Notes under the pieces: generated by a model
The model's input: the letters and a program-made list of their open reading frames with translations, nothing else
The model's database searches: none
Told to the model about the DNA's origin: nothing
Translations under genes and position numbers: made by a program
DNA from: Takakia lepidozioides
Taxonomy: Eukaryota > Plantae > Bryophyta
Length of the DNA stretch: 64,000 bases
Direction: 5' to 3'
NCBI GenBank assembly: GCA_030704615.1
Contig: CM060733.1
Span: 27,280,001-27,344,000, forward strand
Part shown: positions 16,651-50,097 of the stretch, piece by piece
Layout: each line of letters opens with the position of its first letter
Numbering within the stretch: position 1 is the stretch's first letter

Positions 16651-19600
16651 GTGTGTCATGAAGGTGTCAAGGCAGTAGCCCTTGTGGTGAAGTGACACCA
16701 TAATTTACGCTCCCTCTATATTTATTTATTTGCTTGAAAGTTGTGGTCGTTCGCCATGCTCGCATATCTGCAGACTGCAACACATCATTCAGAGTTTGAA
16801 GCTTCTGCAAATTTGTGATGTAGTTTTCCGTGTGAATCCTGTAGAGCACAAGAGGGATTGTGGAGCCTCTCATTTTAAGATAATAGTGTCTTCAATGGGC
16901 ACGTGCGAGGTGGCCGGTGGGCCCCACGCACGGACGCCCGGCTCCCCCCACCCCGGCCGCCCGTCCGCCGCGCAGCCAGTCCCCCGCCCATGAGTCTGCT
17001 GCCCAGCAGTCTGCCAGTCCGCCAGTCTGCCCGCCAGGCCGCTGGCTAGTCCCCTGCCATCCACCCGCTGACGGCGCAGGATCTCCACCGTCCGTTCCCA
17101 TAACCCATCCGAGCCCTCCATTTTTAGGGCTGCGAAAATGGCAATGATCTTGCCACCAAATCCCGGCCGCTCTCTTTTGACGGCTCTTTGTTGTCCGATG
17201 TTGCGGTAGGCGTTTCCATGCACGCGACTGTTCCTCTTTTGCGCGCGATGTTCATGATGATGTTGAAGCGTGTGCTTGAACATGAGAGGACTGTCTCGGC
17301 ACTACAGCCACCGTTGTGCATATGCTTCCACTATTTTTGCCTTCTTGTTGTGCTTTCGGGAACCTTCGTTTTATGGTGTGGTTCTATGTCATAAATATGG
17401 AAAATGTGGACATCTGTCCTCGATAACGTCCTCTGCTTGTGATCCGTCATGATACGTTTAGCCCCTTCGTACTACATCCCTCATGAGAGCCTTCACAAGT
17501 TTAGTTCGTTAAAGGAACCCATGGGTAACATGGGCGCGAAAATGGCGGAAACGTATGCACATGGGGGCGTGTATTGCAGATTTCGTATCGGACGATGGGA
17601 TTGTTTATGTGACCAAGTATAGTGGCTTGCATCCGTCGTGCATAAGTTGTGGAAAAGGGTGGAGAATATGAAGAAACCCAGCTTTGTGATGGATCCACAT
17701 GGTATTATATAAGGGATGGCAACACAAAAAAGCAATACGAGTCGTCACGGAACACCATCCAGTCCTAAGGTCCTCAAACATCTACACGTACCTGTTGAAT
17801 GCAGATGTCTGAGCCACAACGGGAGTAGGTGCATAATCGGTACATTGTCGCATTTGCCAGGAGACGGACCAGGCTGAGACAATTGCATCTGCAAATGTGC
17901 ATGGATGTTTGAGGTCCGTTGTGCCGTGAGTCTGTTCGCAGTGGGTCCGCTGGCCCGTCAATGCTCTGGATATTCCCCTTATCGCGTGCATAACAGTCAG
18001 TTTGGAGGCGGTCTATGGGAAGTCCGTCTGTTCAGTTTGTCGCACTGTGAATTTGTCTGTTGTGTCGGAAGTCTGTCGCAGTAAGTCTGTTGGACTTCTT
18101 ATTTTCCCTCCGATCAGTCTTTTGGCTTGTTCTCCCGCCAGTCTAGCGAAACGTCCGTCTGTTGAACAGTTCTTCTCTATGGATATCAGTATGTTGGACT
18201 GTGCATGCATCATTCTGTTGTGCCGCGAGTTTGTTCGCAATGGGTGTGTTCGACTTTCCTCTTCTCCCTTTACTCTATTTTGTCTTCATTCCGCCCGCTT
18301 CTTCGCAAACCAGTCTGCTGAACTGGAGGTATGCTAAACAATCGTTCCCTGATGATCTGTTCGCCTGGTACTTTGTTAGTCTGTTCTACTGCCAGCCTCT
18401 TTGTAGTGTGTCCGCTGGCAGGGAAGTGCCTCCAATATGAAGCCGCTTCGCCTCAGCAAAGCGAACAGTCCGCTGGATTGGCGGTTCGCTGGACTCTCGG
18501 CCCGATGAGAAATGAGTTTGTTGCACGTGCGAGGACTGTGGATGAATTTAGTACGATGCGTTCGTTCGGTGGACGTATTCAATGCGATGACGACGGATAG
18601 TGGGCGCCTGTGAAATCGCGTCACGTTGGCAGTGCCATGCCCACTTTCCCCCTTCTACTTCTACTTTCTTCTCATGTTCCCTGTGTTGACTCCATTCTCT
18701 TCGCGCCTGTTTCTTCGCATTGTTTCGTTTTCCTCTTTGCGTTTCCATCACCGTAACAAAAGATGACCGTTCATCCCTAGGTGTAGAAAGTCGCGGTGAG
18801 CCACGAAGCGTCGCAAACACGCTCACCTTCGTAACAACTCGAAGTTCATCGGCTCGGTGAGCTTCTGACTTGCTACGGTGTTTCCATTCCATTTTGTGTC
18901 CTCTTTTTGCTTAGGGTGAGTCTTTTTTTAGGACTTTTGTCTGTAGCTCATTGTCCTTGCACCCTCGTTTCATTCTGCAGCAATGGAGGATGCTTGTGAA
19001 AAGGGTGGAGCGGACTGGGTGGATTTTGTGCACCAAACCAGACTGAAGAAGGAGCGAAGGTACTGGTACTCACCAGAGGAGTTTGATCATAAAATAGTGG
19101 AAGCATTTGTAGACCTCCGCGCCCGGAAGCCCAAAAACTCGAATTGGCAGAAGGACAAGCTCTTATGTCCCTTCTGTGAAGAGGTTATCAATGACAAAAT
19201 CCAACTAAATCGGCATCGTGTTGACATGGGTTGCAAGGAGACTGTTGCAACGATTCCACGGGATTTCAAGCCTTGGCCGATACTGAAAGAAATGTCGATT
19301 GTCAAAGAGGCCACAATGCGCATGCGCAGATCAGTGCTTGATCCCCGCACTTTGGAATTAGACGAAGTGCGCGCATGGTATGGCGTCCATTCTACTGGCT
19401 CGTCAATGGAGGATGTGCAAGTGTAGGGAACGCCGGACGCTGCCAGAAAACGTAAACAAAGTGATGGGGCCCAAAAAAAGGAGAGGCAAAAAAAGGAGAA
19501 GGCTGCAAGATCTGCTCGCGAGGCAAGGGCAAAATCCACACAACAGACTGAACCCCGTCCTGGGCGGCAGACCCACACCATTAGCACTGATACTGAAAGT

Positions 19601-20504
19601 GAATCTGCTCCAGGGCGGGCAAACCATTATCCGGAATGATGACTTCGAAGGCCTGGAAATGGTGACAAGTCCAGTGGATATTGACTTGCCTGACCAGACT
19701 GGGCAGTAGACTCATACAAATATGGCAACCCATGCCAGAGGTTTAGGGTCAAAACCAAAAACTCAACAGAGCACTGAAGGGCCAGTCTGCCCTGGCACAT
19801 TGCGTCTCGTTGACTTTGGGTTTTTCCCACCAGAGTGCCCACCAACTGGGGATCCAGACTTCTTCCGTTATTTCTACAAAGTTGCCCAGTCAGGTCTGCT
19901 ACGCACATTCATCCGACAGGCGGAACATAACTGGTTGAACAGCTTTGAAGATGAAGATGACGATGAAGAAGTAGAGGAGGTAATGGTCAGTCTGACCGCC
20001 CAGTCTATTCTCTGTGCTGTTTGAGTCCATCATGGGGGGTCACATTGTCTATTCAGTCTGGTCAGTCCGCTGGCTCAGTCCGCTCATCAGTTAGTCTGTT
20101 TTATATCGCTGCATTACTTACTAAGTCCGTTTGTCAGTCCGCCAGTCCAGTCCGCTGGTCCAGTCTACTAACTGGCTCCACCATACGTACACACGATATG
20201 TCTGTGAGTCTGTTGGTCTGTGAGTCCAGTCCGCTACATGAGGTGAATATAGAGTCCACGTCCATGTTCCTGACGTCCAAGTTATCTGCCGTGTACCAGG
20301 ATGAACGTGTTTCAATTCGTAGGGCCATTCAGGCTTGGCGGATACCAAGCAATGATGCTCTTTTACAAGTGACTGCGGTGCATGCGGAAGTGGACCGCGT
20401 ACGGGAGTACATATTATTGAAGTATCCTGGGTCATCTGCTGCTATATCGGCATTACATATTCAAGACACGTCGGGGGGGGAATGAGTCTGGGACAGCTGA
20501 GTAT

Positions 20505-20672
20505 GCCATCCAGCAGACTCCCATTCAGCAGCCTGTCATCCAGCAAACTCCAACGGAGCAGACTCCCAACGAGCAGCCTATCATCCTGCAGACTCCTCTC
20601 CAGGATCCCATCATGCAGCCCATGCCAATGGGAAGACCTGTCATCCAACAGACTGCGGACCAGCAGACTGCC
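20505..20672 (+). repeat. Degenerate 15-bp tandem repeat (encodes IQQTP-like units)
   Basis: ccatccagcagactc / ccattcagcagcctg / tcatccagcaaactc / tcatcctgcagactc and related units. Confidence 0.7.
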
Positions 20673-20684
20673 TTTCTCCCACAT

Positions 20685-21407
20685 TGTCGCGCACCTCACT
20701 TCAGTAAGCTCCCCTTCAAATCATAGTTACTCACTTTGATGCACGCGCCTAACTCCCAACCTGGCCGCCGGGCCAACTCGGAGCTTCGGCTGCTCACCGG
20801 GACATGACGGTCCCCTTTTTTCCCCCAACAGACCCTCCACCAATTTGGCCCTAGTGGAAATTCCCTTCGGTAGATGGCAGTCCGGAATAGCTCCCCACTC
20901 CTTGGTCGCTTTCTGGCTCGCTCACTTACTCACTAGTTTTTGGTCACCAACGGGCTTGCACCGTTCTCGGGGTTACTACTCCCTATATATACTTCTGTGA
21001 CTGTCCGCGGGGGTTCCACAAACAACACCATCCTTTTATGGCAAACCACCATGAAGATCCTCAATTTCCGGTGATGAGTCGCGGTGAGTCTTGGCCCACC
21101 CACCACGGCCCCATTGGACCGTGATGAGTCCCAAGACTTCCCACGACTCCCACCACAAGATCTCCGCCCCATGGTGAGTCCTATACCACCCCCACCAAGT
21201 CCCGCTAAGCTATCACCACCCCTCGTGGAACCACCCCACCGCAACCCGGTGTGCGGGGCTCCACCTAGTGAGCGCCTCCGCCTCCTTGAGTGCCTTGAGC
21301 ACTCAAGAGTGCTTCAACCCCCGCATCTATTGTTGCCACCGCCCCCACCACAAGGGCAGCCCCTCTCGTGTCCCGACCCCCTGCCGTAAAGGCAAAGGGC
21401 CGCGACA
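20685..21407 (-). repeat. 3' LTR of the chromovirus
   Basis: Direct repeat of 34035-34757; about 94% identical over the first ~260 bp by hand count, mostly transitions. Confidence 0.92.
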
Positions 21408-24400
21408 CACACCCCTACCAACAGGGAGTCGATGTCCTCATCGACTTGTCCATTTTGTAGAAACGAACATCCAAGTTGTGGCGTCCCACATCAAGGAGTT
21501 TGTTTCCGTACCATGGCCCCACTCTCCACTAGCTAGTTCGGCCGACTTACTCCAAGTCCCGGCCAAGGGTGGAGCCTCTCAAGCTCCTCCCAGTGCACTC
21601 TTCTTGGCCCACTTTATGGCCAAGGAACGATCCTCCCCGAGGATCGAATCGCCTTATTGCAACAACATTGCTTGCGACCCCTCATGATGTCGCTTTTGGC
21701 ATCACCTTGAGCAAAGGTTCACCTTGAACCCTTTTTGACTAGGAAGATAACCTTGAACCAACCGTGCGCCCCAATCACTACAATTGGGTCCGCCTTGGAA
21801 TGTTGGCCTGAGGTACGGGAACACGCCGAAGCCGCACTACGACTTCGTCCCGAGGCTACACGATTATAGTACGTGAACGGAAGCACGTAGCTTCCGCGTT
21901 AGCCCGCACTACAAGGCAACCCCCTCGGTAGCGCAGTTATAGTATGCGCACGCGTGAGGTGCGTACTAGCACGTGAACTCCCAAAGAAGGCGCAAGTTTC
22001 CTTGCCCCTTGGATGGGAGTCACCCGATTTCGGCACTGCGCAAACACACGATTAATCCAATTTACCTCTCCCACTTTTGTAAGCAGGTTGGAGGTGATGA
22101 CCAGCCAACCATAGGAGTGCTTGCGGTGGATGCAAGTACAGGTGTAGGCTATGTTAGAAACTTAGTATTCCAAACCATAAGCCGCAACAGGTTCTCTACC
22201 CGGTTACCTTGTGGAGAGGGGGTTAGGGACATGTTCATGACCGGTTGAGTGTCAACACGGAGGTGCCACTAGTTGCTGGGGACAGTTCCGGTTCGAGCAC
22301 TAGCAATACTAGTGGGTACACGAGACGAGGTGTGCGGTTTAGGCCACCTTCACCTCCTATGTCTTCTACGGAAGGTTCTGATTCGGATTGTGAATCAGGA
22401 GGACTCATACCGGCGGTGCAAGTTGTTTCTTTGCCATTGTTGTGGGACACAATGGAGGAGATGTATGGAGCTACCAAGGGGCCACGAAGGTACTCTGGGG
22501 CGGTGGGCACCATCGAGTTGGATGATTTTATCCAAGAGTTTGATAGTTGGTGTGATTTGCAGCAAATGCGCAATCCACAACTATTTACGCCTTTCATGGC
22601 ATGGAAGGGGCTGTTTCAGCACCTTGAGGGGCCGCCTATGGATGATTACCATGAGTTCAGGCGGGGGCATGAGGTTGAGATCGAGGAGTGGAGGATGTAC
22701 TGGTCACCCGACTATGTCTCCATCACTAGGGGCACTAGAGCCACGAGGGCAGTGGCTACACCTGCCGCTGCACCGGCAGCTTCAGCAAGTAGTAGTGGGA
22801 CTAGTGGGACTGGTGATACAGTAGCTACGACGTCCACCCAAACCACTACCACACCAGCACTAGCACCCGTGCCTGCCTTCAACCGTGTTGTGGAGTTCTT
22901 CGAAGAGTTGAGAGGGAACTACCAAGGACAGAGAAGTTGCGGAGCTTGCAAGAGTTCCAACGGAAGCCGACCGAGAGCTTGAGGGAGGCTTTCACTCGCA
23001 TGAGGCGCTTGATAAATGTAACCCAAGGGGTTACGGAAGCTCAGGCAGTCCAATTCTGGTATGGGATATTGGATAAGGAGCCGAGGAGAAGGGTGCGGGA
23101 GGCAACTCTCCTACAAGTGGCCCAATCCACCTTAGCAAATGTGTTTTTGCTGGCAGAGCAGATAGAGCTCAACATGGTGGAGGAACGAGTGGTCATGGTG
23201 GGATTTGCTAAGGAGACACCACGGGGTAGTGGTGCTCCTAGCCAACCACTACCTCAACGTGCTCAAGGCAACAAGGGGGCTCAGGTGAAGCTCAGGGAAG
23301 GGCAGAGAGGACCTCAGATGCATGGGTCTCTCCCTTCATTTGCTGGCCAACAACGGGCGGATGTGGTGTGCTGGACATGTGGAGGACCCCATGTCAAGAA
23401 GGATTGCCCAGAGGGAGGCAAAGGGCCGGCACATGCACAGCCTGCACAGCTGCAGTGTGGGCATTGTGGCAAGCACGGGCATGGAGAGGCCCAATGTTAT
23501 GGTTTGCATCCTGAGTTGCGCCCAGGCCAGTTCCAAGGGAACAATGGTGGCCGGGGGCGAGGTGGAGCAGCCCAGAGAGGATGAGGTGGCCAGCCACGAG
23601 GTGCAGGCCAAGGGCCAGCTCAACATGGCCAAGGACGCGGAGGTCAGGGGGTTGACCAAGGCATGGCCAACCGGCTTCAGCAGCTAGAGCAGAGGCTCGC
23701 TGCCATGGCTATAGCTCAGGTGGTACCGGCTCTAAGGCCGGATGGTCCACCTCCTGCTCCTGAGGGAGGAGATATGGGAGGCATGGGATTCATGTGTGGA
23801 GCAGCACTACCACTAGTGCAGGTGGAGTCTGCTGCAGCCGTGACTCGAGGAGCAGCACAAGTTCCTGAGCCACGAGGTGCAGAGGTGGAGTTGGATCCAC
23901 AGCGTGGGGAGGCAAGCCGTCAGGCTAGGCTTCCTCAGTCATTCACATTGGCAGAGACAGTGTCGACGCCATCCATGGCACCTAGTTCTCACCCGACTGT
24001 TACCGAGGCGGAGGTTACTATGCCATTGGGGAAAGCTACACGGGTAGCACCACTACCTAGTGTTGCCAAGGCTACGGCAGCTAGTGTGCTGCTAGGAGCG
24101 GCCACATCTGTGTGCCAGGCTCCATTGTTCTCGGCTACCATGATTGCGACGCCGGGGGTAAGACCAGCTGAGGTGTTCAGGCTGGTAGCTACATCCTGTG
24201 AGAGTGGGGAGGTTACTTCATCTTCTGCGGAGATAGTGGGAGGTGTAGTGCCGGAGGGATCCTCGGATTTGAGGGTCAAGACTGCCACGGCGGCGCCATG
24301 GCAAGCTGCAGCTGCCAGGTTGATGGAGCTGCCAGCTAGGCCAGCCATTGAGCGCGCCATGGTGACACCTGGAGTTGTCATGTTAGACAACTAGGATGAC

Positions 24401-25170
24401 ATTTTCTGTTTGAGTGGACCGGCAGGCAAGAGGTACCGGCCACTGCGGGTCTTGTTGGACTCGGGAGCTCAGCCATTGATGCTGGGCAGAGCTGCTATTG
24501 CAGGCTTGGGCCTCACGGAGGCGGATATGGAGCCTTGTCCTTTCCAGATACAGACATCTCTGGAGGATCGGAGCAGGCTCGGGGTATGACACGGCGTGAG
24601 TTGGCTATCAGACTACGGCCGGATCACCCTACAGATGGCTCAGTGATGCGAGCCAAGGCCATTGTGACAGACGCGGTCTCATACAATGTCCTGGTTGGTG
24701 GGGCAGTGTTGTATCCCATGGGCTTCACCCTGGATTTTTGGGAGGAGTCAGTTTCCTATAGGCCTGCAGGGCAGTCAGGGGAGGGCCGGCGTGTGCAGCT
24801 CCCTGTGACGTTCATAGGAGGAGTTGCGGTTGCCCAGTGAGGCAAGATGCCAACACTAGCAGCATTCACAGCGGCAGTGAGTTGGCCTAGAGAATTGCTT
24901 GAGGGCAACGCTCATTCAGAGGATGTGCCACCTCCGGGAAAACATGATGACATGTATGGTATGGCGGAGTTGCCTACCATGGTTGCTCAGACTCCATTGT
25001 GGGGCACGAGCAAGGATTTGCAGCGGGATGCTGATCGACGGGTGCAACAAGCCTGGGTGGAGGCTTTTGTACCGTCAGGAGAGGAGGAGAGTGCGGGGAT
25101 TGCACCAGGACCACCTCAGTTGTCTCCATTGGACACCACAACTATTGTGTGGCAGTATCCGGATGAAGGC

Positions 25171-26106
25171 ATTTGTCTTCTGGACTTGTTTGGTGGGATC
25201 AGCACCGGATTGGCTGCTGTGTTACAGGCAGGTGTACGAGTTCGGCGTTACCTGTATGTGGAGAGGGATGAGACTGCACAACGCGTTTCACTTTGCCATG
25301 TTGCTCAGTTGGTGCAGCGGTACCTTGAGTTGTTGTCGGTGTCTGCAATTCGTGGATATCAGCAGGCCTTGCCAGCAGACATTTCGTTGCTGAGGGCGCA
25401 GGATTTGGAGCGGGTTGGCTCCATTGATCTGGTAGTGGCAGGTTGGCCCTGCCAAGGGCATTCATCAGCCGGGCATGGCAATGGATTGCGAGACTCGAGG
25501 TCGGGTCTGTTTTGGGAGATGGTGCGGGTTTTGCGCCACTTGCAGCTTCATCAAGCTGTATCTCCAGCATACATCTTGGAGAATGTGCCACTGATGGGCG
25601 ATTCTCGGGCTAGGGTGATGGCCAGTGTGCATCAAGTCCGGTCATGGCTTGGGTCAGCAGTGTTGCTAGATGCAGCTACAGTGGGGTCACGGGCTCATCG
25701 TCCACGGCTACGGTGGACTAACTTGATGCCACCCGCACTGCTCAAGCGTGCATTTGATGGGGTGCAGCGGCCAGCACATCTCACAGTGGATAGCATTCTG
25801 GACACAAGGAGGCAGTCTCAGCGTGTGAGACACGATGACCGTTCGCCTTTGGCAGTGGTCAACAAGGTGGGTCAACCACGAGCAGCATTACCTACACTAC
25901 TCAGCTTTCCAGGATCGCATGCTTTCCGGAATAGTGGACTTGGCCTCCTGTGGGATGCTCAGTTGCAGCAGTTAGTGGAGCCTAATGCTGACGAGCGTGA
26001 GCGGGCAATGGGTTTTACCACTGGTACCACGGCGGTGTCGTCTCTTTCTGAGGCATCACGTCATCAAGTGTTGGGGCAAACAATGGATCTCAATTGCTTG
26101 ACCTAG
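25171..26106 (+). other. C5 cytosine methyltransferase domain inside Pol
   Basis: Motif I LLDLFGGIS, II YVERD, III ADISLL, IV GWPCQGHS (catalytic Cys at 25450), V GLRDSRSGLF, VI ILENV, VIII SRAHRPRLRWTN, IX ERERAMGF and X VLGQTMD, in canonical order. Confidence 0.93.
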
Positions 26107-29100
26107 ATTATCACCTTGGCTCTGGCTGAGCAACGCAGAGTGCGGAGTACACTTCCCTCGATTGTCTCTCTGCCTACCGAGACGGTACAGGCAGTGAGTG
26201 GGGGCGAGCATGTGAGGACCACGGGGTGCATGCATCCATGGCACACGTGGGAGGTGCTCGAGGTTCAGAGGGAGTTGGCAGCCAAGGCGGCTGTGATGGA
26301 TGAGGTTGGGGATTCTTCTCGGGTTGAGGAGGTCCTCAAGGATGAGATGATGGGGCAGGATGAGGCCTTGTCATTGACTGAGCAGGCAGGGAGTACTGCT
26401 CAAGAGGTTACAACATAGCAACCACTGGACGCGTCCTCTACCTCTAAGCCCACTGGACTTAAGGTTGCAGTTACGGAGGACAATTGGGAGCCTGACATTG
26501 GACCCATTGTTACCGGAGGAGAGAGACGACGTATACGGCGGTTCCTGAGGGCTTACAGGAATTGCTTTGCCTTCAGTTTGAAGGACTTGGGAGCACTGAA
26601 GGGTCAAGAGATCCATATTGAGTTGGCCACTGACACGCCAATCTTTCGGAGACCCTATAGATACAGTGACATGGAGAGGTCTTTGATTCAGATTAGGACT
26701 CAAGATCTCTGGGATGCAGGTTTGGTGGAGCTCTCTGGTGGAGAGTATGTTTCAGCCATAGTGATGCCAGCCAAGAAGGATGTCTATGGCAATTGGACGG
26801 AGAGACGTATGTGCGGTGATTACCGGCTTGTAAATCGTCAGACCAAGTCCGATAAGTATGCCATGCCAACACCGAGGAGATCTTTGATGCCATCGGCATG
26901 CTAAGGCCTTTAGCACTTTGGATTTATGATCCGGATATCACCAGTTGCCAATCAAGGAGGCGGACAAGCAGAAGACGACATTCTGGGGGATCAATGAGCA
27001 CGGCAAGGATTGCTTATATCAGTGGCGGTTCTTACCATTTGGGCTTAAGAATGCTCCTGCAGAGTTTCAGAGAGTCATGGATAGGATTCTAGCAGGGGTG
27101 GACTTTGCTCGGTGCTACATAGATGACATCATCATCTTTAGTGTTACGATGGAGGAGCATGAGAGATACCTTCAGGTGGTATTGGAGCGCTTGAGAGCGC
27201 ACGGATCGAAGTTGCATCCGGGGAAGTGCAAGTTTTTCCACAACCAGATTGAGTATCTATTATAGACGGTTTGTCAAGGGATTTAGTACCATTGCAAAAG
27301 CTCTAACCAAGCTAACCAAGGTGGACCAGGAGTGGCAGTGGGAAGATGAACAGGAACGAGCTTTTCAAGAGCTCAAGGCGAGGTTGACCTCGGCGCCTAT
27401 CCTGAGACGACCTATCAGAGGGCGTCTCTTTCAGCTGCATACGGATTGGAGCATGCTGGGGCTTGGAGCGGTGCTCACACAGGTGGATGATGAGGGAAGA
27501 GAGTTCGTAGTGGCTTATGCTAGCTGCTCGAACAACGCTGCAGAGGCTAAGTACAGCTCATATGAGGGAGAGTGCTTAGCTGCAGTGTGGGCCGTGGCAC
27601 ACTTCAGGTGCTATCTATACGGCAATCTTTTCACCCTTGTCACGGATCACCAGCCACTCAAGTGGTTGATGGAGTCAGACAAGCTTACGGGGAAGCTTGC
27701 ACGGTGGGCACTCATACTCTAGGAGTATGACTTTCAGGTTTTGCATCGACCGGGTTTGGTCAATCGGGATGCGGATGGATTGAGTCGCAATCCATGCATG
27801 AGCCAGCAGGATGACACTGGAGCTCGGTGGCATGGAAAGACGGACGAGGAGATGGTGCCGGGATGGCACGCATCTGTATTTTTGTGTATCTTGGCATCGG
27901 GAGGTCAGGTTGGACCTACAACAGGGATGACTGTAGATGGAGTGTCTGAGGACCCTGAGGCTAGTGATGAGCCAGGTGGTGCCAGAGATATACATGAGGA
28001 TTCGGCTGTGTTGGACTACCTCCGCACGGGAGACATGTCAGCCACTGTGACTGCCAGGGAGAGGGATCGGATCATGCAATGAGCCAAGAGGTTCAAGTGG
28101 GAGGGGATACACCTACTTCGAGTGTGGGAGGATGGTCGGGTGAGGATTGTGCCTCACCCCACACAGCTTGCACGGTTAGTGCGGCATGCCCATGAGGAGT
28201 TGGGGCATTTTGGAGTGCGACGCACTCACAGTTTACTGCAGGGGCAGTATTGGTGGCGTGGTATGCATACAGAGGTGCAACAATTCGTGGCTAGGTGCAT
28301 GGTATGTGACAGGGTGCGTGCTTCATTCAACGCCCCTACACCATAGTTGCATCCTTTACCAATCATGGGATTGAGCTACAGGTGGAGTCTTGACTTCGCA
28401 GGGCGTTTGCCACTGACTATGCGCCACCACAGATATGTGTTGGTGATGGTGGAGCACTTCTCCAAGTGGATCGAGTTTGTTCCATTGCCTGACAAGGCTA
28501 GTGAGGGGGCTGCATATGCATTCTTGGATCGTGTGCTTAGCCGATTTGGTGCTCCAGCTGAGGTACTCACGGACCAAGGGAGAGAGTTCTTAGGGGAGTT
28601 TCAGGCTTTGTGTGATAAAGCCTTGATAGACCACCGCACCACTTCTCGGGATCATCCTGAGGCCGATGGCTTAGCAGAGAGAGTTGTTCAGACGGTGAAG
28701 AGGGGTTTGCGCAAGTATGGCTTGCAGAAGGGACACCTAGGAGATTGGGATCTTCAGGTTCCTTGGTTAGCCATGGGCTACAGGTTCAGCAAACAAGCAT
28801 CACTTGCCTCCTTCTCACCATATTTCCTTCTCTTTGGCCGAGAGCCGGATTTGCCTGCAGCCATTCGTAGGGACACTGCTCAAGTCCTTAACCTTGACGA
28901 TCCGGACGTGTGGGTACGTGCATGTGATCAGCGTGCAGAGTTGTTCAAGAAAGTCATGCCCATGGCTTTTGAGAACCTTGTCATTTCACAGCACCGTGAT
29001 ACGTTGAGGTATGCCACTATACGTGGTGGAGGATATCATCCTGGGGTTCGGAGGTTTAGCCCTGGTGACTATGTTTATTTGCAGCAGACTACTCCAACGA

Positions 29101-29288
29101 CTCTGGATATTACTGCAGGGTGTGTTATTCTGAGGGTTCGAGAGGTGTTCCCCTCAGGGGTCCTGATCTTGGAGGGTCGGGATGGCATGACTTGGAAGGA
29201 CCATGTGCGTAATTGTGCGCCATGTCACCTTCCCAATGTCGATGGCAGAGTTGACCCAAACTTGGCAGTGGTACCTGCAGGTTTGAGG

Positions 29289-29432
29289 TGCATGCTCTGT
29301 GGGTCTGCCAAAGGGGCAGCCACCATGCTGGTGTGTGATCGATGCTCAAGGGGTTGGCATATGGGATGCTTGACACCACCTCTTGAGAAGGTTCCTGACG
29401 GAGATTGGTTGTGTCCACACTGCTTGGGATAG
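29289..29432 (+). other. PHD finger at the integrase C-terminus
   Basis: CMLC..MLVCDRCSRGWHMGCLTPPLEKVPDGDWLCPHC is a canonical C4HC3 PHD, in frame with the integrase core (ORF 28347-29432). Confidence 0.92.
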
Positions 29433-29897
29433 TGGCAGTGGACATGACTGGAGGCAGCTAACAAGACATGGGAGGCCAAGCTCATAGGAGTCAATACATG
29501 AGATCCCAAGCTCAAGTTCACAGGATGCAAGACGGCGACTAATGATGGGGCAACTCTTGCACCCGGCCTCTTGATCTATCGAGTTTGAGTGTAGTAGGGA
29601 TAGTGGTGGAGGACTTAATGAGGCTATTGTCACTATCACATCTTGTGGCTACCTAGACTTAGAGGGACCTAAGCACCAGCTAGGGGGGCGATTGTGTGGA
29701 CTAGTGACTGCCATAGTGGGCAGCATAGTGGCAGCCTAGTGACTGACTAGTTGTAGCCTAGTGGTTGGACTAGTGGCTGGACTAGTGGTGGACTAGTGGT
29801 ATACTAGTGTGTGGTGTGCACATGTGTTGTGTGGTTTTGGATAGCGATGTAGTTGTGTAGCGATATGTATGCGCACGACACAAGGTTGATGTCCCCA

Positions 29898-32800
29898 TCA
29901 ACGCTTCTTCCGCTTTTGAGGTCGCCCTTCGAAAGCTGCAACCGCCTCGGATGCGTTTCCCATTTCTGAGGCACGCACCCAAGATGCCTCCACATGATGA
30001 TAGCCCTTCCATTTCACGAGATACTCCGTTTCTCAATTCTTGAACCACCTCGACTTAAGCACTGCCTCCACCTCGTACTCAGGTTCATTTTCATGATCTA
30101 ATAGCACAGGTGGTGGACGCAACACTTGATGCCGATTCGGACGCGCTTCATCTTTGAAGTAAGGCTTCAAAAGGGAGACGTGGAATACCGGATGCACCTT
30201 GCTATTTGCCGGCAGCTCCAATTCATACACATCCTCATTCATAACCTTCCGGATGCGAAAGGGTCCCGCATACGGAGGTACGAACTTCGGACCCACTTCC
30301 GGAGGTAGTCGAAAATTCTTGATATTCAACCAAACCTCCGTATCTGCCTCAAACTTGACTTCCCTCCGCTTCCGATTTGCCTGCCGTTCATACTGTTTCC
30401 TAGCTTTGGCGATGTTGTACTTTGCGAGCTTCAACAAGCGTTCGCGTTCCTCCAACACAGCTGCTGCTGCCGGTTCCTCAACGTCTTGGGCAGCCCAACT
30501 TGTCGGCACTAGAGGTGCTTTTCCATAGACCAATACGAAAGGGAAAACACCCGTTGCGGAGTGTTTTATGTTATTATAACATAACTCTACCGCTTCCAAG
30601 TGCTCCACCCAGTCCGATTGGTCCGCCGACACGTAATTCCGCAAGATCTGCTTCACCACGGAATTCACCCTTTCCGTTTGGCCGTCCGTCGTAGGTCAGA
30701 AGGCGGTGCTCATCTTGAGCCTCGTCCCCATCTTCTTCCAAAGTGCCCTCCAAAATTTACTTGTAAACTTTGGATCGCGGTCCGAGACAATATCCTTCGG
30801 GAGTCCATGATGTTTCAAGACGTGGGCGAAGTAAAGTCGCCCCTTCTCCTGTGCCGTTGCCGTCTCCTTGGTGGGGGCCATCTCATCCTTCCGGTAAGCC
30901 TTCCGGATCTTCCTTTGGAGCGCCGTCTCGCCCCTGTACACCAGCAAGAGCTGCTGCTTTCTACTTAAAGCATCGGTCACCACATTGTCCCGTCCCAGTT
31001 TGTACCGGATATCCACGTCGAACACCGCCAAAGTATCTTGCCACCTAAGTTGTTTTGGGGACAATTTAGGCTGCGTGGCAAAATACTTCACCGTGACATT
31101 GTCTGTGAATACCTTCACTGGGTTGGAACCAACATAGTGGCGCCAAAGTTCAAGGCAATGCACCACCGCCTTCATCTCTTTCTCGTGCGTCGGCCACCAT
31201 CGCTCCACTTCATTCAGTTTCTTACTTTCGTAAGTCACTGGACGTCCATCTTGCATAAGTACACCCCCAATCGCGAAGTCCGACGCATCTGTATGAATCT
31301 CAAACGGACGGTCGAACTCCGGGATTTTCAAGACTGGAGCTTCCGCCATCCGCTACTTCAACTCGGCAAAAGCTTAGCCACAAAAGGTGTTCCATACCCA
31401 TACCTTGGATTTACACAGAAGGTCTGACAGCGGCCCCGCGATCTTGGCGAAATTTCTCACATACTTTCGGTAATAGGAAGCGAGTCCTAGGAAGGATCGC
31501 ACTCCCGGGACCAAAGTCGGAGGCTCCCAGTCCAAGATCGCCCTCACCTTTCTGTCATCCATTTTGATCCCATCCTGTGTAATCACATGCCCTAGGAACT
31601 CCACTTTTGTGACCCCGAATTCGCACTTTGAAGCTTTGGTATATAGCTTCCCTTCCCGCAATTTCTGGAACACCCTTTTGAGGGGCTCCATGTGCTCTTC
31701 CTTTGTTTTCGAGTACACCAAGATGTCGTCGATGTACACGATTACAAAGTCATCCAACCACTCCTGAAAAAGACTATTCATTAGCGTGCTAAAGGTCGCG
31801 GGTACGTTGGTGAGGCCAAAAGGCATCACCAAGAACTCATACGAACCATATCTTGTCCTGCACGCGGTTTTCTCCTCATCTCCTTCTGCCACTCGGATTT
31901 GATGGTAGCCGGAGCGCAAATCGATCCGGCTGAAATACTTCGCTCCTGCCAACCGATCAAAGAGGTTGTTGATTCTTGGCAAAGGGTACCGGTTCTTGAT
32001 AGTCACCTTATTCAGAGCCCTATAGTCGACACACATCTGTAGCGTCATATCTTTCTTGTCTGCGAATAGCACCGGGGCTCCGTAAGGTGACTTACTCGGC
32101 CGGATGTATCCATTTGACATTAGATCCTTGAGCTGAGTCTTCAGCTCGACCAACTCTCTGTGGCTCAACCGGTAGGGCACCTTGGCAGGCGGCTCCGATC
32201 CCGGTAACACCTCAATCTTGTGGTCAATTCCCCTTCGCGGTGGCAAGCCGCTTGGTAAATCCTCCGGCATCACATCCTGGTATTTCTCCAAAATCCCCTT
32301 GATCCAATTTGGGCTCGGCTCCCCATCGCCTTCTCCATTCACTTGTCTTACATAAAGCAAAAATTGGGGCTCGTGTGACTCCTCCACGACCCACTCCCTT
32401 GCTGACAGAAGGTTTAGTCGCCCTCCCACGGGGTTGGGCGTTTTCAACACTCGTAAACTTCGCCACCATTCCCACATGGTATCGTGACTACTCTCTTGTG
32501 GCCATCTATGACCGCTCTGGGTCATCCCCAAAATGAGATCCACTCCATCGATCTCGCAAATGGTGAAGTTCTCACGTCCCTCCCAACTCCCGAGCTGAAG
32601 AGGAACATCGAACGCCAATTGTGGTTCTCCTTTAGCAGAACGCACCTCAATAAAGGCCCCCACATCACTTGTCGGGAGTCCCAGCTTCCGTGTTGTTGCC
32701 GGTGTCATGAAGGAGTGCGACGCTCCAGTGTCCACCAACAACGACACGTTAGTTCCGGAGATTATCCCACTCACAAAAATTAACTGACTCCCTTTACGCA

Positions 32801-33905
32801 AGGCGTCAGTTTCCTGATACAACTCACAAGAGTAGTTGTCTACCTTGCAAGTCTTGGCGACCACCGCCTCCACCAAGCGGTGGATGGAAGCTTCGGACAA
32901 CTCCGTGGTTGCCCGAGTCATGTTCAATTGTCGGGGATTTGTACACTTCTTGGCTATGTGCCCGGGTTCCCCACAATTGAAGCACACTCCATCGAAGGTC
33001 GCCTTTTGTCCGCCATAAGGCGTCGCACCTGATTTTTCTTTCGGAGCACCGGGTGTCGTCTTGGCGTGTGAAGGCCCTCCCTTCGATTTCCACGTGCCGT
33101 TGTCGCCGCGTGGCCTATCCCACTTCTTTTCCGGTCGAAATGAGTCACCCTTCCGCGGGGTCTTCTTGTGGTTCAGCTCCGTACGGCCTTGTCTTTCGCC
33201 CTTAGGGACATCCGAAAAACATTCAGCCCTCTCAATTGCCTCGTTCAAAGTCTTAGGTAGCTTCTCCTCCAACTTCCGTCTGGCCCATGGGGCCAGTCCC
33301 GCCACAAAGTTGAAGACCATTTCTGGTTCTACCATGTCCGCGACTTTGAGCAACAACACATTGAAAGCCTGAACATATCCCCGAATGTCATCCGTTTGCT
33401 TCAGATTCCTCATCTTGTCCCGGGTGAGCCAAGACGCGTTGAGGGGCACAAGCTGTTTCTTCATCAGTTCCTTGAACCCACTCCAGTTCAAGGTTTCTGG
33501 GTTTAGACCTCGGTCGTGAAGGCATCTCTGCCACCATTGTTGAGCATAGCCCCTCAAATAGGTGGGAGCCACTTCCACCCGATCCTCGTCACTCAACTTG
33601 GCCACCCGGAAGTACTGCTCTACCTCCAAGAGCCAGGTGTTGAGTGCCTTCCGATTTCGGACGCCCTCGAAGATGTCGGGTTCCTTAGGCTTCACCTTAA
33701 ACTTTGCCTTAGTGGAAGTGGCATTAGCCGCCTTCAATACGTCTTTCAACGTCCCGCCAAACTGCGCCAACAACCCTTCCCAGAAGGCTGCTGGCAGGGG
33801 AGGCATCTGTTGGTCTGTCAGAGCTCTCATAGATTCCTCCCGTTCTTGAGTGGCCCCATTTTCAAAAGCATGCATCGCTTCCTCAAATGACCGCTTCGGT
33901 GACAC
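29898..33905 (-). pseudogene. Chromovirus gag-pol with C-terminal chromodomain
   Basis: Zn knuckle [14 protein letters not shown], protease [19 protein letters not shown], RNase H HTDASDFAIG, integrase with its N-terminal half deleted (junction at about 30880), GPY/F motif, and chromodomain EYEVEAVL..YLVKWKGY..SW ending at TGA 29898. Confidence 0.9.
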
Positions 33906-34034
33906 GTCGCCCCTATCGGGCTCACCAAGATCATCATCTTTCGGGCCGTTCCGCTTTCGCTTTGGCTTCCCGACCCCATGATGAGGCCGATCCCAAGGAT
34001 GATCGTGTACTGAACTCTAGGCTCTAATACCAAG

Positions 34035-34757
34035 TGTCGCGCATCTCACTTCGGTAAGCTCCCCTTCAAGTCATAGTTACTCACTTTGATGCGCGCGCCT
34101 AACTCCTAACCTGGCCGCCGAGCCAACTCGGAGCTTCGGCTACTCACCGGGACATAACGGTCCCCCTTTTTCCCCCAACAGACCCTCCACCAATTTGGGC
34201 CTAGTGGAAATTCCCTTTGGTAGATGGCAGTCCGGAATAGCTCCCCACTCCTTGGTCGCTTTCCGGCTCACTAGCTTACTCACTAGTTTTTGGTCACCAA
34301 CGGGCTTGCACCGTTCTCGGGGTTACTACTCCCTATATATACTTCTGTGACTGTCCGCAGGGGTTCCACAAACAACACCATCCTTTTATGGTGAACCACC
34401 ACGAAGACCCTCGATTCCCGGTGATGAATCGCGGTGAGTCTTGGCCCACCCACCACCGCCCCATTGGACCGTGATGAGTTCCAAGACTCCCCACGACTCC
34501 TACCACAAGGTCTCCGCCCATGGTGAGTCTTATGCCACCCCCACTAAGTCCCGCTAAGCTACCACCACCCCTCGTGGAACCACCCCCACCGCAACCCGGT
34601 GTGCGGGGCTCCACCTAGTGAGCGCCTCCGCCTCCTTGGGTGCCTTGGGCACTCAAGGGTGCTTCAACCCCCGCATCTATTGTTGCCACCGCCCCCACCA
34701 CAAGGGCAGCCCCTCTCGTGTCCCGACCCCCTGCCCTCAAGGCAAAGGCCCGCGACA
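34035..34757 (-). repeat. 5' LTR of the chromovirus
   Basis: TG...CA repeat of 20685-21407, adjacent to the PBS at 34021-34033. Confidence 0.92.
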
Positions 34758-36324
34758 CACATAACACGGCTCTTTTTGCAATCTGACGATCGCCATCACC
34801 GGTAATTCGACCCGGAGCTGAAGACCTCACACTTCCCCGGCTTAGGGTGGGAGAAATTAATCCCCATTTGGATTGGCATAATGAGCTCCACCGGATTGTT
34901 GCGGACCGCCGGTGGTCATTTGTACCCTTTCATTATTCCATGGAGTTTTCTGCTGTTGCCATTGAAGCCACAACCGTCCAAAATGCGCTGCCTCTACTTG
35001 TGCAGCTGATTCTCATGGATAACCCACGGCCTGAAGACCTCAGACATATGCCTATGGCACATCCAACCTTTGGGGTGCGAAGAAAGCATTTGTTCGGATT
35101 GACTGAGGAGGACTTTGAGCGCATGACAGCTTCCTTCCTACAACACAGATGGATGCAAATTTGGCAATTTCCGCTCGTACAGCAAGTTGATGAAGGATCT
35201 ACATAGTTTGAGGATGGACTTGCTCCATGGAACATACCATTCACAGAAGTTTGTGGTGGATGACGCATTGCAGTGGTTTGCATTGGTGATGGAGTGAGCA
35301 GTATTCAACATTGTTTTGCAGAATCTCAATGTCTTCAAAGTCCTGTGGTGTGGGACCCCAACTGAAGACCGCATCAGCGCCATTGCTCATCTCGATGGAG
35401 CATGCTTGATGCCCCCATATAAGCCTCATTAACATAACATTTGATATGTTGAATATAGTATTGAAAAATGGTCACTGGGTGAGGGTGGCCTCATTCAGAT
35501 CCACAATTATGCTTGACCCACTCCCAAGAGCCTGCCCCCACCTACCTCATGGCCAATTGTTACTATCAACGATGCCCCTTGTACATTTTTGTATGCAATT
35601 TACATGTCCAACATCCCAGAGCATGAATGGATAACACTACCTTGTTTTTGGACGTGTTTGAAAAATTTGGGTTCCATCTCACCGCGAGGAGCAATCAACT
35701 CCTCCCCATCTGAATTCACTCAATTTTTCTTGGCATCTTCGTCACCATCTCCATCGGCTCCTTCTTTTGTTGCCACTTTCTTGACTGCATTTTTTCATGG
35801 TATGCTAGCTCTTTTGTTTGGAGTAGGGACCACAATGATTTCCACATCATCATATTCATGGTCTTGGGGATTATTAGGGATTGCACAGCCGACCCTTCTC
35901 TTTCACCCTACCTCTCTCTCATCTCCCAGGCCCTCTGCCAACTATGTTGTGGCGAGTCACGACCAGACCGGGATCTTCAAAAGGTGACATTGCTGGCAAA
36001 ATCTCCATTGTTGCATCAATACTTTGTTGTAATGGCTTGTAAGCACATGCGTGTTGAGACGTGCCGGTTGAAAACATCTCATCTTCCACATTGCTACCTT
36101 GATGAACAAAGAAAGAGAGACTTTGTGATCCTGCTGTCACATAAAAGCTCCTTGAAAAGTACCAGTGATGATGATATTTTGTAAGAATATTATATTTTAA
36201 TCATGAACATCTTAGGCCGGAGTGCGAGAGTTGGGTCCCCAAAACAAGAGGTATCTTTTTCATTGGGCTGGCTCAAGAAGTTGCTGTCAAAACTTATGCT
36301 ATGTAGGTGCCATGTAGGCGAATG

Positions 36325-36505
36325 GCCTTTGTTGGTCTATGAGCCAAGATCCCTGAGGGCGTCTCATGGCTTTCGCCCTGGTCGTTCGTGCCACACCGCT
36401 CTCGGACAGGTCAAACGGGAGTGGAAGGGAACCCCTTGGATAATCGAGTTTGACATTGCAAAATGTCACGACACCATCTGTCGTGAAAAGTTGGTGGATA
36501 TCATA
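36325..36505 (+). pseudogene. Fragment of a group II intron RT/maturase (probable organellar DNA insert)
   Basis: VYEP..SHGFRPGRSCHTAL..WKGTPWIIEFDIAKCHDTI..KL matches RT subdomains 2-3 of group II intron maturases. Confidence 0.75.
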
Positions 36506-36789
36506 TGCCATATGGGGGCGCTTGGTAGAATTTACATGTGGCCCTTCTGGCGATATTCTGAAAAAAAAAATATGGAGATTCTCTAGCTACCGTAGTGGGA
36601 TATTGGCCAGTTAGGCACTTGGCTACCTAATAATTATTTTTGGGGTCATTTGGCAGTTTGGCACTTTCAAGAAAATTTTCTAAATTAGGTGCCATCTTGG
36701 ATGTGTAAATTTGTAAAATTAGGCAACTAAGAATAATGACCATAAGACAAAACTATAAAAATAAAATGAAAACTCATTAGAGGCGGGTG

Positions 36790-37230
36790 TTCCAGCTACG
36801 GAGGTGAAGGTGATCAGATATCCAAGATGCGTGAGTGGGCAACTCTTTGGTTATGGGAGGCTTGGTGTCATGTTGGATGTCATACACAGATGATTATGTC
36901 TGGTTGGGAACAATGTGGCATTCTACGTGTATTTGAACACATGTTTCAAGGAGAGGCTATGAGAGCTAACTTTGCAAGTGACTTGTTTGTCACCTTTGAT
37001 AATATCTTCGAAATGGATCTTATTACGGAAGATGTCCCACGGGTATATCTATCTTGGTCTCAGTGTAGTTGATAACATGAGTAGATGTTTGGCAAATCTG
37101 CATATTGAAGACTAAGAGCTTCCTAACCTCAATGATAGTTCAGAATCCGAAGGAGAGCTTGAGGGATACAAGGCAAACTATGATGAGATAGTTGAGTCAA
37201 TGCAAAGACCTATGGAGGTTATCTGGAACT
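36790..37230 (+). pseudogene. Possible pogo/DDE_1 transposase C-terminal remnant
   Basis: WLWEAW..MIMSGWEQCGILRVF followed by an acidic tail resembles pogo-type C-termini; degraded. Confidence 0.3.
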
Positions 37231-37831
37231 AGTACATGCATCAAATAGTATGAAGTAGAAAGAAACTGGATATCATTTTTAGATTTTTTTCATTTTATTA
37301 TTCGTTTTCTAATTTGAATTCAAGTTTTTATACCATTAGGCATTTTTGGAGAAATTTTTGAAAATTAGGCACTCTTGCCAAAATAATTTATTTTGATTAT
37401 GCATATTTTTTTGGCGAGGACTACATTTAACTAACAAGTTTAAAGCAAGCATTGAGGTGGTGGGGCCGTTGGACGGAGCTCCGAGAGGCTGTGGCAGGCT
37501 ACCAGTCAAATTTCATCCCCCAATTGGCACCTCATGTTCCCTACCTTTAGGACCATGTTCCCAAACATTCTCCAATTTTGCTTCCCTGTCCCCGCTCCTT
37601 GATCCCTGCTCCTTGATCCCTGCTCCCAATTGGGACAAGGGAGCGAGGAAGGGAGCGGGGACAAGAGATATGGATTGGGAGGGGAGTGAGGATCTTGGAC
37701 TTAGAATTATTTTGGAGATGAGATGAAAATGTACAATAATTAGGGCCGCTTTACACGTTGACCCAAGCCCAAGACCAAGCCAATATGGAGCGTTTCCATT
37801 GGTCGAGAGCTGAAAATTGGGCCCAACCGCT

Positions 37832-38857
37832 TTACACTACCTCTTGATAGAAAAAAACGGACACAAGATTCTGGTCTCTCCACATGCGCACACTCTCGGC
37901 ATCATCAGCGTGTTTTTTGAAGGTTTGCCACGTACGTTTCTTGACAAGGTTGTGAACATCTTGCTCCAACAAGAAATCATCACGGGTCCATGCATCGCCC
38001 AAGCCGGTGTTGTTCATCACGTGCTCTTTATGCTCCATCTTGATTTGGGCGATCGACAGGCCTCGACACAAACACTCGATGACCCAGGCTTTCAATTCCT
38101 CGCTAATGTGTGGTGCATAGGCGTGCGGGTGTTCCTGAACTCTGCGGACTTCCCATGCAAGGGTTTTCATTGCGCATCTGTATGCTTCATGTTGTTGTAG
38201 TACGTGAGGACACAGATGGCATGGGCGAGAGAGCATTGCTGGACCTTGAAACAACATTGGCAACCACACTTGTAAGACTCTCCATACTCCGACTTCTTTC
38301 TTCTTGGGCCTTTATGAGGGCAAGATGTTCCAGCACCCACTTCTGTTTTGGATCCTCCACTATTGCTTTGTTGGTGCGCTTGTCATCAGGACCGTAGCAG
38401 TATTGATACCTGGACATAAAATTCAAAAATCGATATCCAACGACTTGTGGAAGATAGAATCAGAGAACTCGTGAAACAAAAAATGGCAACAGACATGCAA
38501 TGAAACGTCAAAAGGACTGAGGACGGTGCACACATAATACTGGACAAAAATGTGTTGGCTCTGGGCGCTTTTCGCGTGCCGGGTTCCACTTTAGAATGGA
38601 CACTCACCCAAAACTGAGTGGGGTAGTCCTCTAAACTCTCCTCTCCCAGGACAAAGTCACCAACTCTATCCCAAGGTATGCAGACCTTTTCAACATTCAT
38701 TCGCACACCTATAAAACCCATATTGCGTCTCACTCTTCCAATGGAGATCCTTCCTGTTGAAGGGTCCTGGTTTTGCTGTTTGCAAACATTGTCGAAGAGG
38801 CCGTAAAAGCAGGCTTTCCGTGATCAGTATATCATCGGGTTTTGCTTCCACGTCCAT
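37832..38857 (-). pseudogene. N-terminal part of a MULE transposase (At1g60560/At4g13970-like type), truncated
   Basis: IPWDRVGDFVLGEE, YCYGPDD, APHISEELK, RDDFLLEQDVHNL and DDAESVRMW..VFFYQE resemble the N-terminus of the plant SWIM/MULE protein family. It reads inward from the right TIR; the catalytic and SWIM parts are absent. Confidence 0.72.

Positions 38858-44779: not shown

Positions 44780-50097
<5,318 letters not shown>

Follow-up and report, generated by a model that had tools for sequence, protein, structure and literature searches.

A decayed Ty3/Gypsy retrotransposon of a land plant with a DNMT3-like methyltransferase domain inside Pol

The window analysed here, 64,000 nucleotides of the Takakia lepidozioides genome, contains a decayed Ty3/Gypsy element of a many-copy family with the domain order gag, protease (PR), DNA methyltransferase (DNMT), reverse transcriptase (RT), RNase H (RH), integrase (IN) and PHD finger. 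That the element is a DNMT-bearing Ty3/Gypsy retrotransposon, and that the DNMT is a trait of its family, is almost certain. We assign it, as a member from a land plant, to the published KnitGypsy-Dnmt3 kind, since its relatives have the same order, the DNMT is conserved like the RT, and the RT and DNMT trees agree. This kind of element was previously published from Klebsormidium nitens (de Mendoza et al. 2018, PMC5890265, accessible text). The overall reading is probable: a dead copy of a Ty3/Gypsy family with a selected DNMT3-like domain in a single gag-pol frame, working copies of which would methylate their own DNA and integrate by way of a circle. The features of the element and of the elements around it are as follows.

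22452..23581, + strand: gag (tblastn with Marchantia P0001; frameshift at ~22925-22937)
24350..24825, + strand: aspartic protease (Asp_protease_2 E 0.008, N-half; stop at 24392, frameshift at ~24560)
25162..26133, + strand: DNMT3-like C5 cytosine methyltransferase (PF00145 E 2e-13; motifs I-X in canonical order)
26476..27259, + strand: reverse transcriptase (RVT_1 E 3.5e-24)
27267..27797, + strand: connection and RNase H (RT_RNaseH E 5.7e-33; stop at 27720)
27984..29240, + strand: integrase, H2C2 zinc domain and DDE core (Integrase_H2C2 E 5.4e-17, rve E 3e-13)
29289..29423, + strand: PHD finger at the integrase C-terminus (PF00628 E 6e-11)
29682..29690, + strand: polypurine tract (PPT), identical in position and sequence in loci L004, L007, L010, L020 and L022
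29691..29880, + strand: terminal repeat B, one copy with a CA end (its last 38 bases are the B end of five loci)
20685..34757, - strand: host element of the DNMT copy, a Ty3/Gypsy element with a chromodomain-like C-terminal end and no DNMT (LTR pair, 5-bp target duplication, PPT)
20685-21407 and 34035-34757, - strand: LTRs of the host element, 94.5% identical
34016 to 29896, - strand: gag-pol of the host element (from sequence)
16865..39330, no strand: outermost element (~270-bp terminal inverted repeats; 9-bp target duplication 16856-16864/39331-39339)

The initial annotation had placed a complete C5 methyltransferase between the protease and the RT. Its motif residues are indeed found in order (F 25189, E 25261, P-C 25447/25450, E-N 25579/25582, R-x-R 25699/25705 and the motif X G 26074), with the PF00145 match falling in the open reading frame 24841-26103, and the proposed Pfam check returned DNA_methylase, RVT_1, RT_RNaseH, Integrase_H2C2, rve and PHD. 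The gag region has no match in a Pfam search. Marchantia P0001 aligns to it by tblastn (residues 1-154 to 22452-22937, residues 153-672 to 22925-24562), its frame extends open upstream as far as 22227, and its translation contains two CCHC-like knuckles near 23370-23510. The protease, with a DSG motif at 24458, is 50-64% identical to metagenome loci. In the RT, the YIDD motif lies at 27116, and there are frame breaks at ~26874-26897 and a deletion at ~27258; the integrase is interrupted by stops at 28080 and 28344. The PHD finger is common to the five loci that share the PPT. No tyrosine recombinase was matched by Pfam in the scanned open reading frames.

The protease C-half, the DNMT and the RT start share one frame, as had been claimed for 24535-26904; the bounds found here are ~24550-26874, with point stops at 24838, 26104 and 26416. 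The last DNMT helix contains the stop at 26104, directly after motif X, which, together with the stops at 23582 and 24392 and the frameshifts at ~22930 and ~24560 upstream of the DNMT, means that this copy makes no enzyme. The copy is dead, 5'-truncated and without a 5' repeat. Of the element bounds first given (22078..29880), the right one is the true family end. The left one did not hold: when the left part was aligned to three loci, similarity exceeded that of shuffles for L005 only and began only at 22312. Two short patterns for the left junction gave no match in the window, and no target duplication of the DNMT copy was found. An ordinary paired-LTR structure had also been expected; neither paired LTRs of this element nor the partner repeat A occur in the window, and the family relatives carry split repeats. 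The PPT and the CA end are present in the window copy, while the TG start and the primer site were read in L010 and L020. Both borders of repeat B have loose ends in the sequencing runs X1, X5 and X6.

The DNMT domain is most similar to DNMT3A, consistent with its earlier description as DNMT3-like. Its best PDB matches are DNMT3A, its structure model (pLDDT 96.4) has 6f57 (DNMT3A) as the best Foldseek match (E 7.6e-19, TM 0.72/0.81), and profile comparison favours DNMT3A (E 7e-25) over DRM (3e-11) and M.HhaI (1e-8). A DRM identity was rejected, as DRM has rearranged motifs and the element DNMT has motifs I to X in canonical order. Fold and motif order thus resemble those of host DNMT3 enzymes (animal DNMT3A/B, Physcomitrium DNMT3); in contrast to these, the element DNMT lacks introns and is only ~22% identical to DNMT3A, and its methylation context is not readable from sequence. 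Physcomitrium DNMT3 carries DUF3444 (PMC6453930); for the element, a domain search gave no match to PWWP, ADD or DUF3444.

Compared with 16 loci, the DNMT is 67% identical (pN 0.20, pS 0.71), the RT 67-72%, the protease C-half 50% and the linker 43%. At the sequence level, the DNMT is conserved as strongly as the RT. Divergent pairs (L005 against the other loci, dN ~0.29, dS 1.5-1.9) indicate that it is under purifying selection; the median omega of 0.56 among close loci is what decayed copies would give and is not by itself proof of selection. Loss of the catalytic residues, considered as an objection from the start, is not what the family shows: the catalytic Cys is present in 254 of 262 aligned proteins and the motif VI Glu in 265 of 274, with 91-97% of the aligned proteins retaining Cys, Glu and both Arg. 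We consider it likely that the DNMT would be active on DNA in intact copies.

The order gag-PR-DNMT-RT-RH-IN recurs in metagenome loci (a set that contains duplicates and probably represents few hosts). In L005, gag to the integrase core lies in a single frame of 2063 codons with two point stops, and Marchantia P0006 and Klebsormidium P0029 each contain PR-DNMT-RT-RH within one protein. The domain is likewise found in Calypogeia, Riccia, Sphagnum and Closterium, and in a sister group that includes Scenedesmus the same DNMT is placed after RNase H and before the integrase. The RT-RH and DNMT trees both separate 13 sequences with the DNMT before the RT (window, Marchantia, loci, Klebsormidium and Closterium) from 20 with the DNMT after the RNase H (SH-aLRT 87 and 98). 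These trees are quick searches that used 20 of the 56 sequences of the latter group, have no host-DNMT3 outgroup and include one distant sequence as the sole DNMT-less element. The kinship with the Klebsormidium element that had been proposed is likely; this element falls on the same side as the window in both trees, with no settled position within its group. In Marchantia polymorpha, 14 of the 32 longer matches listed are annotated as hypothetical genes. Named vascular plants are absent among the 32 and 120 DNMT matches listed, which were drawn from a capped number of scored candidates and are not proof of absence. Two pattern matches in viral contigs include no relative.

The DNMT copy is nested in an LTR element that is itself inside a Mutator-like element. 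The host element has a PBS that we take to be of the tRNA-iMet type, a Pfam search for its chromodomain gave no match, and contig 15 of run X5 contains its empty site, joining 20679 to 34758. The outermost element is presumably Mutator-like, judged by its terminal inverted repeats and target duplication; Pfam gave no transposase match for it. The 14-kb stretch was also considered as a single composite family with two pol sets and rejected. Coverage is similar over both halves, but 22 X1 contigs continue from 29881 into other sequence, and the pieces listed include starts at 29881 and none that bridges it; nested insertion is preferred because contigs diverge at, or start from, this position. 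The flanking PPR gene has its best matches in Diphasiastrum (52-55% overall) and Ginkgo (up to 61% in the tail), and its tree gives it no firm position.

It is exceedingly improbable that the DNMT reflects a one-off capture, a later insertion, contamination or a misassembly. The left junction of the copy was not located, which would fit such an origin. Against it, the domain order is shared by named genomes and many loci, as expected from the initial claim that the DNMT is a family feature of Pol; sequencing runs from several studies contain the stretch; and the flanking genes are those of a land plant, in line with the host first proposed. In run X1, 166,564 contigs align to the 14.7-kb stretch with even coverage across DNMT and RT, and none of the 15 joints listed skips the DNMT. 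Over 99% of the depth disagrees with the letter of the window at the stops 24392 and 28344.

According to the accessible text of PMC5890265, the Pol of KnitGypsy-Dnmt3 is likewise of Ty3/Gypsy type and contains a DNMT3-type domain that is unrearranged, lacks introns and is under purifying selection, and the element has DIRS-like repeats (A1, A2 and two B flanking A2). The K. nitens protein KFL_009030040 has PR-DNMT-RT-RH-IN and 45% DNMT identity. That text treats the element as acquired within the K. nitens lineage and says nothing about how it integrates, nor about self-priming, target duplications or a PHD finger. The window element differs in its embryophyte host and in having named relatives in liverworts, peat mosses and Closterium. 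SymbioDIRS-Dnmt3 and DIRS/PAT-type elements share the DNMT3 in Pol and the A-ORFs-B-A-B layout; they integrate by a tyrosine recombinase, whereas in the window family the integrase is of the DDE type, the ends are TG..CA and the target duplications measure 4 bp. A DIRS/PAT identity was ruled out by the rve integrase, the missing recombinase match in the scanned open reading frames and these duplications. As in the self-priming Ty3/Gypsy elements Tf1/Sushi and Tcn1 (PMC6317226), the primer site in relatives is complementary to the 5' repeat; unlike them, the family has a PHD finger in place of a chromodomain, a DNMT and split repeats. PHD, methyltransferase, Marchantia and Klebsormidium do not occur in the main text of that survey.

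The repeats of the relatives are arranged as A1-ORFs-B1-A2-B2 or as A-ORFs-B. L020 and L022 show B-A-B, L004 has B-A to the contig end, and L007 and L010 stop at B. The two loci with both ends readable, L010 and L020, have TG..CA ends and 4-bp target duplications, and reads from the species of the window contain both B-to-A and A-to-B continuations. A self-priming match with 0-1 mismatch is present in four of seven loci (0/80 in each control). The combination of split repeats, a DDE integrase and 4-bp duplications suggests an integration route unexpected for LTR elements. On balance, sequence evidence slightly favours integration from a cDNA circle cut at the B|A junction. Self-primed reverse transcription would give a linear cDNA with B+A at each end, as standard reverse transcription should because the PPT precedes B1 and the primer site follows A1. 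The cDNA would be closed into a circle, and the DDE integrase would cut the circle open at the B|A junction, a near-palindrome (CA-2 bp-TG), and insert it, yielding the permuted form. A likely role of the PHD finger is to steer integration on chromatin. A route without a circle is a serious though less probable possibility: an odd strand transfer could give a linear A-ORFs-B-A-B cDNA, or ordinary LTR elements could insert in tandem and recombine, with A-ORFs-B arising from B1 x B2 recombination. No circles were seen, and B1 x B2 recombination fits L007, L010 and the window copy equally and would leave the target duplication intact. However, B stands upstream of A1 in none of the seven loci, the positions of PPT and primer site predict B+A at both ends, and the accessible text on Klebsormidium reports the same layout.

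As for the role of the DNMT, the protease of working copies would likely release the domain, which would then likely methylate cytosines of the element's own cDNA or fresh insertion. We give the element's own DNA an even chance of being the main target. It is rather unlikely that an active enzyme is instead directed at element RNA or at DNA of the host or of competitors, be it the integration site, another transposon or a silencing gene of the host. Selection on the domain is silent as to its target, and the PHD finger is a possible chromatin anchor. CpG depletion, considered as a sign of self-methylation, was rejected: CpG at the 3|1 junctions of the element is 43 observed against 139 expected (host element 80/97), and ratios just as low occur in a hAT element, the PPR gene and a chromovirus piece without DNMT from L013 (0.28, 0.25 and 0.31, respectively), so the depletion is not element-specific. 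On the other hand, because it is located inside Pol, the DNMT would be made and packaged together with RT and integrase, and DNA methylation at CG is reported for related DNMT3 domains of Symbiodinium (PMC5890265, accessible text). It is improbable that the domain is a conserved, catalytically idle scaffold that binds DNA or shields cDNA in the manner of DNMT3L. In the accessible text of PMC5890265, yeast showed no methylation by the Klebsormidium domain, and Glu stands in place of the motif IV Pro in 81 of 261 aligned proteins and Cys in place of the motif I Phe in 27 of 230; yet the catalytic residues are kept, and the same text reports that human DNMT3B was also negative in that assay, a result its authors call inconclusive for Klebsormidium.

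The literature search, which covered text outside subscription papers, figures and picture supplements, found no description of a DNMT-bearing retrotransposon in land plants, in agreement with the initial annotation, nor of circle-junction integration by such an element. We tentatively propose, as a reading less likely than not, that PHD-bearing Ty3/Gypsy elements of green plants (chlorophytes, Klebsormidium, Closterium, liverworts, mosses and the host of the window) would form an ancient clade with an active DNMT3 at two places in Pol. The streptophyte branch of this clade would integrate a methylated cDNA circle through an internal B|A cut by the DDE integrase. If true, this LTR element would insert in the copy-out, paste-in manner of IS3 and supply land-plant genomes with a mobile source of de novo methylation. 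DNMT-carrying retrotransposons are thus no longer a curiosity of algae and count among the residents of land-plant genomes, and some of the DNMT3 genes counted in plants may be transposon copies. They are present in the model Marchantia polymorpha, and the question of the role of transposon DNMTs raised by the 2018 paper therefore becomes genetically testable.

The DNMT-bearing Ty3/Gypsy element observed in the window is real. Translation and Pfam place coding for gag, protease, a C5 methyltransferase, reverse transcriptase (RT), RNase H, integrase and a PHD finger at 22452-29432 on the plus strand. The methyltransferase and one part of the terminal repeat, repeat B, lie as follows.

24841-26103, plus strand: methyltransferase open reading frame (PF00145, E 2e-13)
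29691-29880: repeat B of this copy, placed by its likeness to B of the relatives

The initial annotation had claimed a complete C5 methyltransferase with its motifs in order, in frame with the C-terminal half of the protease and the start of RT. Both claims hold, as the catalytic motifs are all present in canonical order and one frame from ~24550 to 26874 spans the three regions, interrupted by point stops (24838, 26104 and 26416). This copy is dead: besides these stops it has others at 23582, 24392, 27720, 28080 and 28344, its frame breaks around 22930, 24560 and 26874-26897, and a stretch close to 27258 is deleted.

The solved structures nearest to the domain are DNMT3A, followed by DNMT3B/C, with DRM and M.HhaI far behind. 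E values for DNMT3A, DRM and M.HhaI were 4e-10, 3e-5 and 8e-4 with the single sequence, and 7e-25, 3e-11 and 1e-8 with a profile of 81 rows. The structure predicted from 25141-26103 (pLDDT 96.4) matches DNA-bound DNMT3A (6f57) with E 7.6e-19, TM 0.72/0.81 and 22% identity. Loss of catalytic residues, raised earlier as an objection, is contradicted by the relatives: of 321 proteins searched, 306 align, and these keep the catalytic Cys in 254 of the 262 that cover its position, the motif VI Glu in 265/274, and the motif VIII arginines in 258/283 and 263/282.

The DNMT in Pol is a family trait. Searching longer proteins with the DNMT gave 32 matches, including 14 from Marchantia polymorpha and one each from Sphagnum fallax and Klebsormidium nitens; a search of proteins of similar length gave 134, and Calypogeia fissa, Riccia sorocarpa and three further Sphagnum species also appear among the 120 listed. 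A full scan recovered 232 clusters with E up to 1e-30, one of which, from Closterium, carries the order DNMT-RT-RH-IN. The 27 metagenome loci show the order of the window wherever their length suffices, except for internal deletions such as those in L007, L013 and L014, and in L005 a single frame of 2063 codons with two point stops runs from gag through the integrase core. The same order across these genomes and loci contradicts a one-off capture, in which other members would lack the DNMT. Across 16 of the 27 loci (duplicates and short pieces dropped), DNMT identity to the window is 67% (pN 0.20, pS 0.71), a conservation near that of RT and above that of the protease C-half and linker. Omega for the DNMT is near 0.2 in divergent pairs with L005, and its median is 0.56 among close, decayed locus pairs.

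The element is also many-copy in public sequencing runs. In run X1, possibly the source sample, 166,564 contigs align to 14.7 kb of the window, mostly at 90-99% identity, and at two of the window's stops >99% of the depth has another letter. Cover on the DNMT equals that on RT in X1, X5 and X6, where summed depth is not a copy number.

The DNMT occupies two positions in Pol. Among 180 proteins, it precedes RT in 10 and follows RT/RNase H in 67; in proteins lacking RT it follows gag or protease in 25 and precedes integrase in 18; in 60 it stands alone. P0024, P0026 and P0061 are among the proteins with the DNMT after RT/RNase H or before integrase without RT, and a named example is Scenedesmus sp. 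PABB004 'pol'; no description of the RT-RH-DNMT-IN-PHD form was found in the literature searched. In quick trees of RT-RH and DNMT, built from 13 rows with DNMT before RT and 20 of the 56 with DNMT after RNase H, the layouts separate in both (support 87 and 98), and the window groups with Marchantia and the loci (support 100 each). With no host DNMT3 rows in these trees, the layouts may reflect either a single capture and a subsequent move or separate captures of two related DNMT3s.

The paired LTRs sought for the element were not borne out, as there is no repeat pair at the window copy, which is explained by the split-repeat layout of its relatives. Locus L020 reads A1 (339 bp, TG..CA), ORFs, PPT, B1 (~115 bp, CA end), 2 bp, A2, 2 bp and B2, with a 4-bp target duplication. 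The 3' end is likewise B-A-B in L022, and B-A followed by the contig end in L004; L007 and L010 terminate at B, and L010 also shows a 4-bp duplication. In no locus of the seven does B precede A1. Repeat A is absent from the window copy. In the window's species, contigs reach the left border of B from conserved other sequence and exit its right border into flanks or an A-like start, so the A/B split layout exists there. The 11 bases 3' of A1 are complementary to a site in A ~30 bases past a TATA-like box, with 0-1 mismatch in 4/7 loci; self-priming elements likewise have a complementary site. Within B, 29700-29810 contains short tandem ACTAGT-type units whose number varies between copies, and an unrelated ~0.8-kb insertion (L022:6612-7400) breaks up the 3' region of that copy.

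The DNMT element and the pol of its host element, a minus-strand Ty3/Gypsy, stand tail to tail. The host element has LTRs that are 94.5% identical and a 5-bp duplication; in its family the usual continuation at 29881 is other sequence. The left junction of the DNMT copy was sought in the window and not found. The ~0.7-0.9 kb between host PPT and DNMT gag (21408-22300) has high cover in reads, and its assignment to either element is uncertain. A 22.5-kb TIR element (16865-39330, 9-bp target duplication) encloses the 14-kb LTR element, which in turn contains the DNMT element, giving a three-level nest. An X5 contig joins 20679 to 34758, an empty site, which shows that there is an allele or relative lacking the 14-kb insertion. 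A fragment with a weak RVT_1 match (36185-36586, E 5e-4) resembles part of a group II intron maturase and may come from an organelle. The flanks, earlier called embryophyte-like, encode PLS-PPR, P450, H2A, thioredoxin reductase and MGAT2, the gene content of a land plant. A PLS-type PPR gene with an E motif (44961-46928) and an inverted partial paralogue (51475-51925) stand on either side of the thioredoxin-reductase-like gene, and a hAT transposase lies at 53486-55927.

We propose that gag-pol would be translated as one protein and then cleaved by the protease. Self-primed reverse transcription would yield linear DNA with B+A on both ends. Because the copies in genomes are circularly permuted relative to this DNA, it is likely circularised. 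The integrase would open the B|A junction, which is near-palindromic, by a cut staggered by 4 bp, presumably much as at IS3-type circle junctions; a two-repeat circle would give A..B-A-B, and A..B would arise from a circle with one repeat or by B1 x B2 recombination. Carried inside the particle, the predicted DNMT enzyme would mark the cDNA or the new insertion and thereby dampen bursts or give the DNA a host-like look. CpG at 3|1 junctions numbers 43 vs 139 expected in the DNMT element and 80 vs 97 in the host element, and depletion is just as strong in three other places: the hAT element, a gene of the host, and an element that lacks a DNMT. The two adjoining elements have opposite signatures, with CpG at 0.51 and CWG at 1.29 of expected in 22455-29429, and 0.89 and 0.65 in 30036-33968 of the host element.

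The covered part of de Mendoza et al. 2018 (PMC5890265) reports both DIRS-like repeats and purifying selection for KnitGypsy-Dnmt3, and describes the K. nitens domain as inactive in yeast, an inconclusive result; Marchantia occurs nowhere in its main text. The covered parts of PMC10952607, PMC11982613, PMC8616336, PMC6317226, PMC11244446, PMC9516144 and PMC6453930 describe no DNMT-bearing element. The initial remark that such elements are not known as a described part of land-plant genomes agrees with the literature searched, in which no land-plant report was found, although closed papers or picture supplements could contain one. The core idea is already in print and the window copy is dead; the element is a land-plant addition to a published, rare kind of element, and what merits follow-up is its range of hosts, its occurrence in a model organism and the puzzle of how it integrates.
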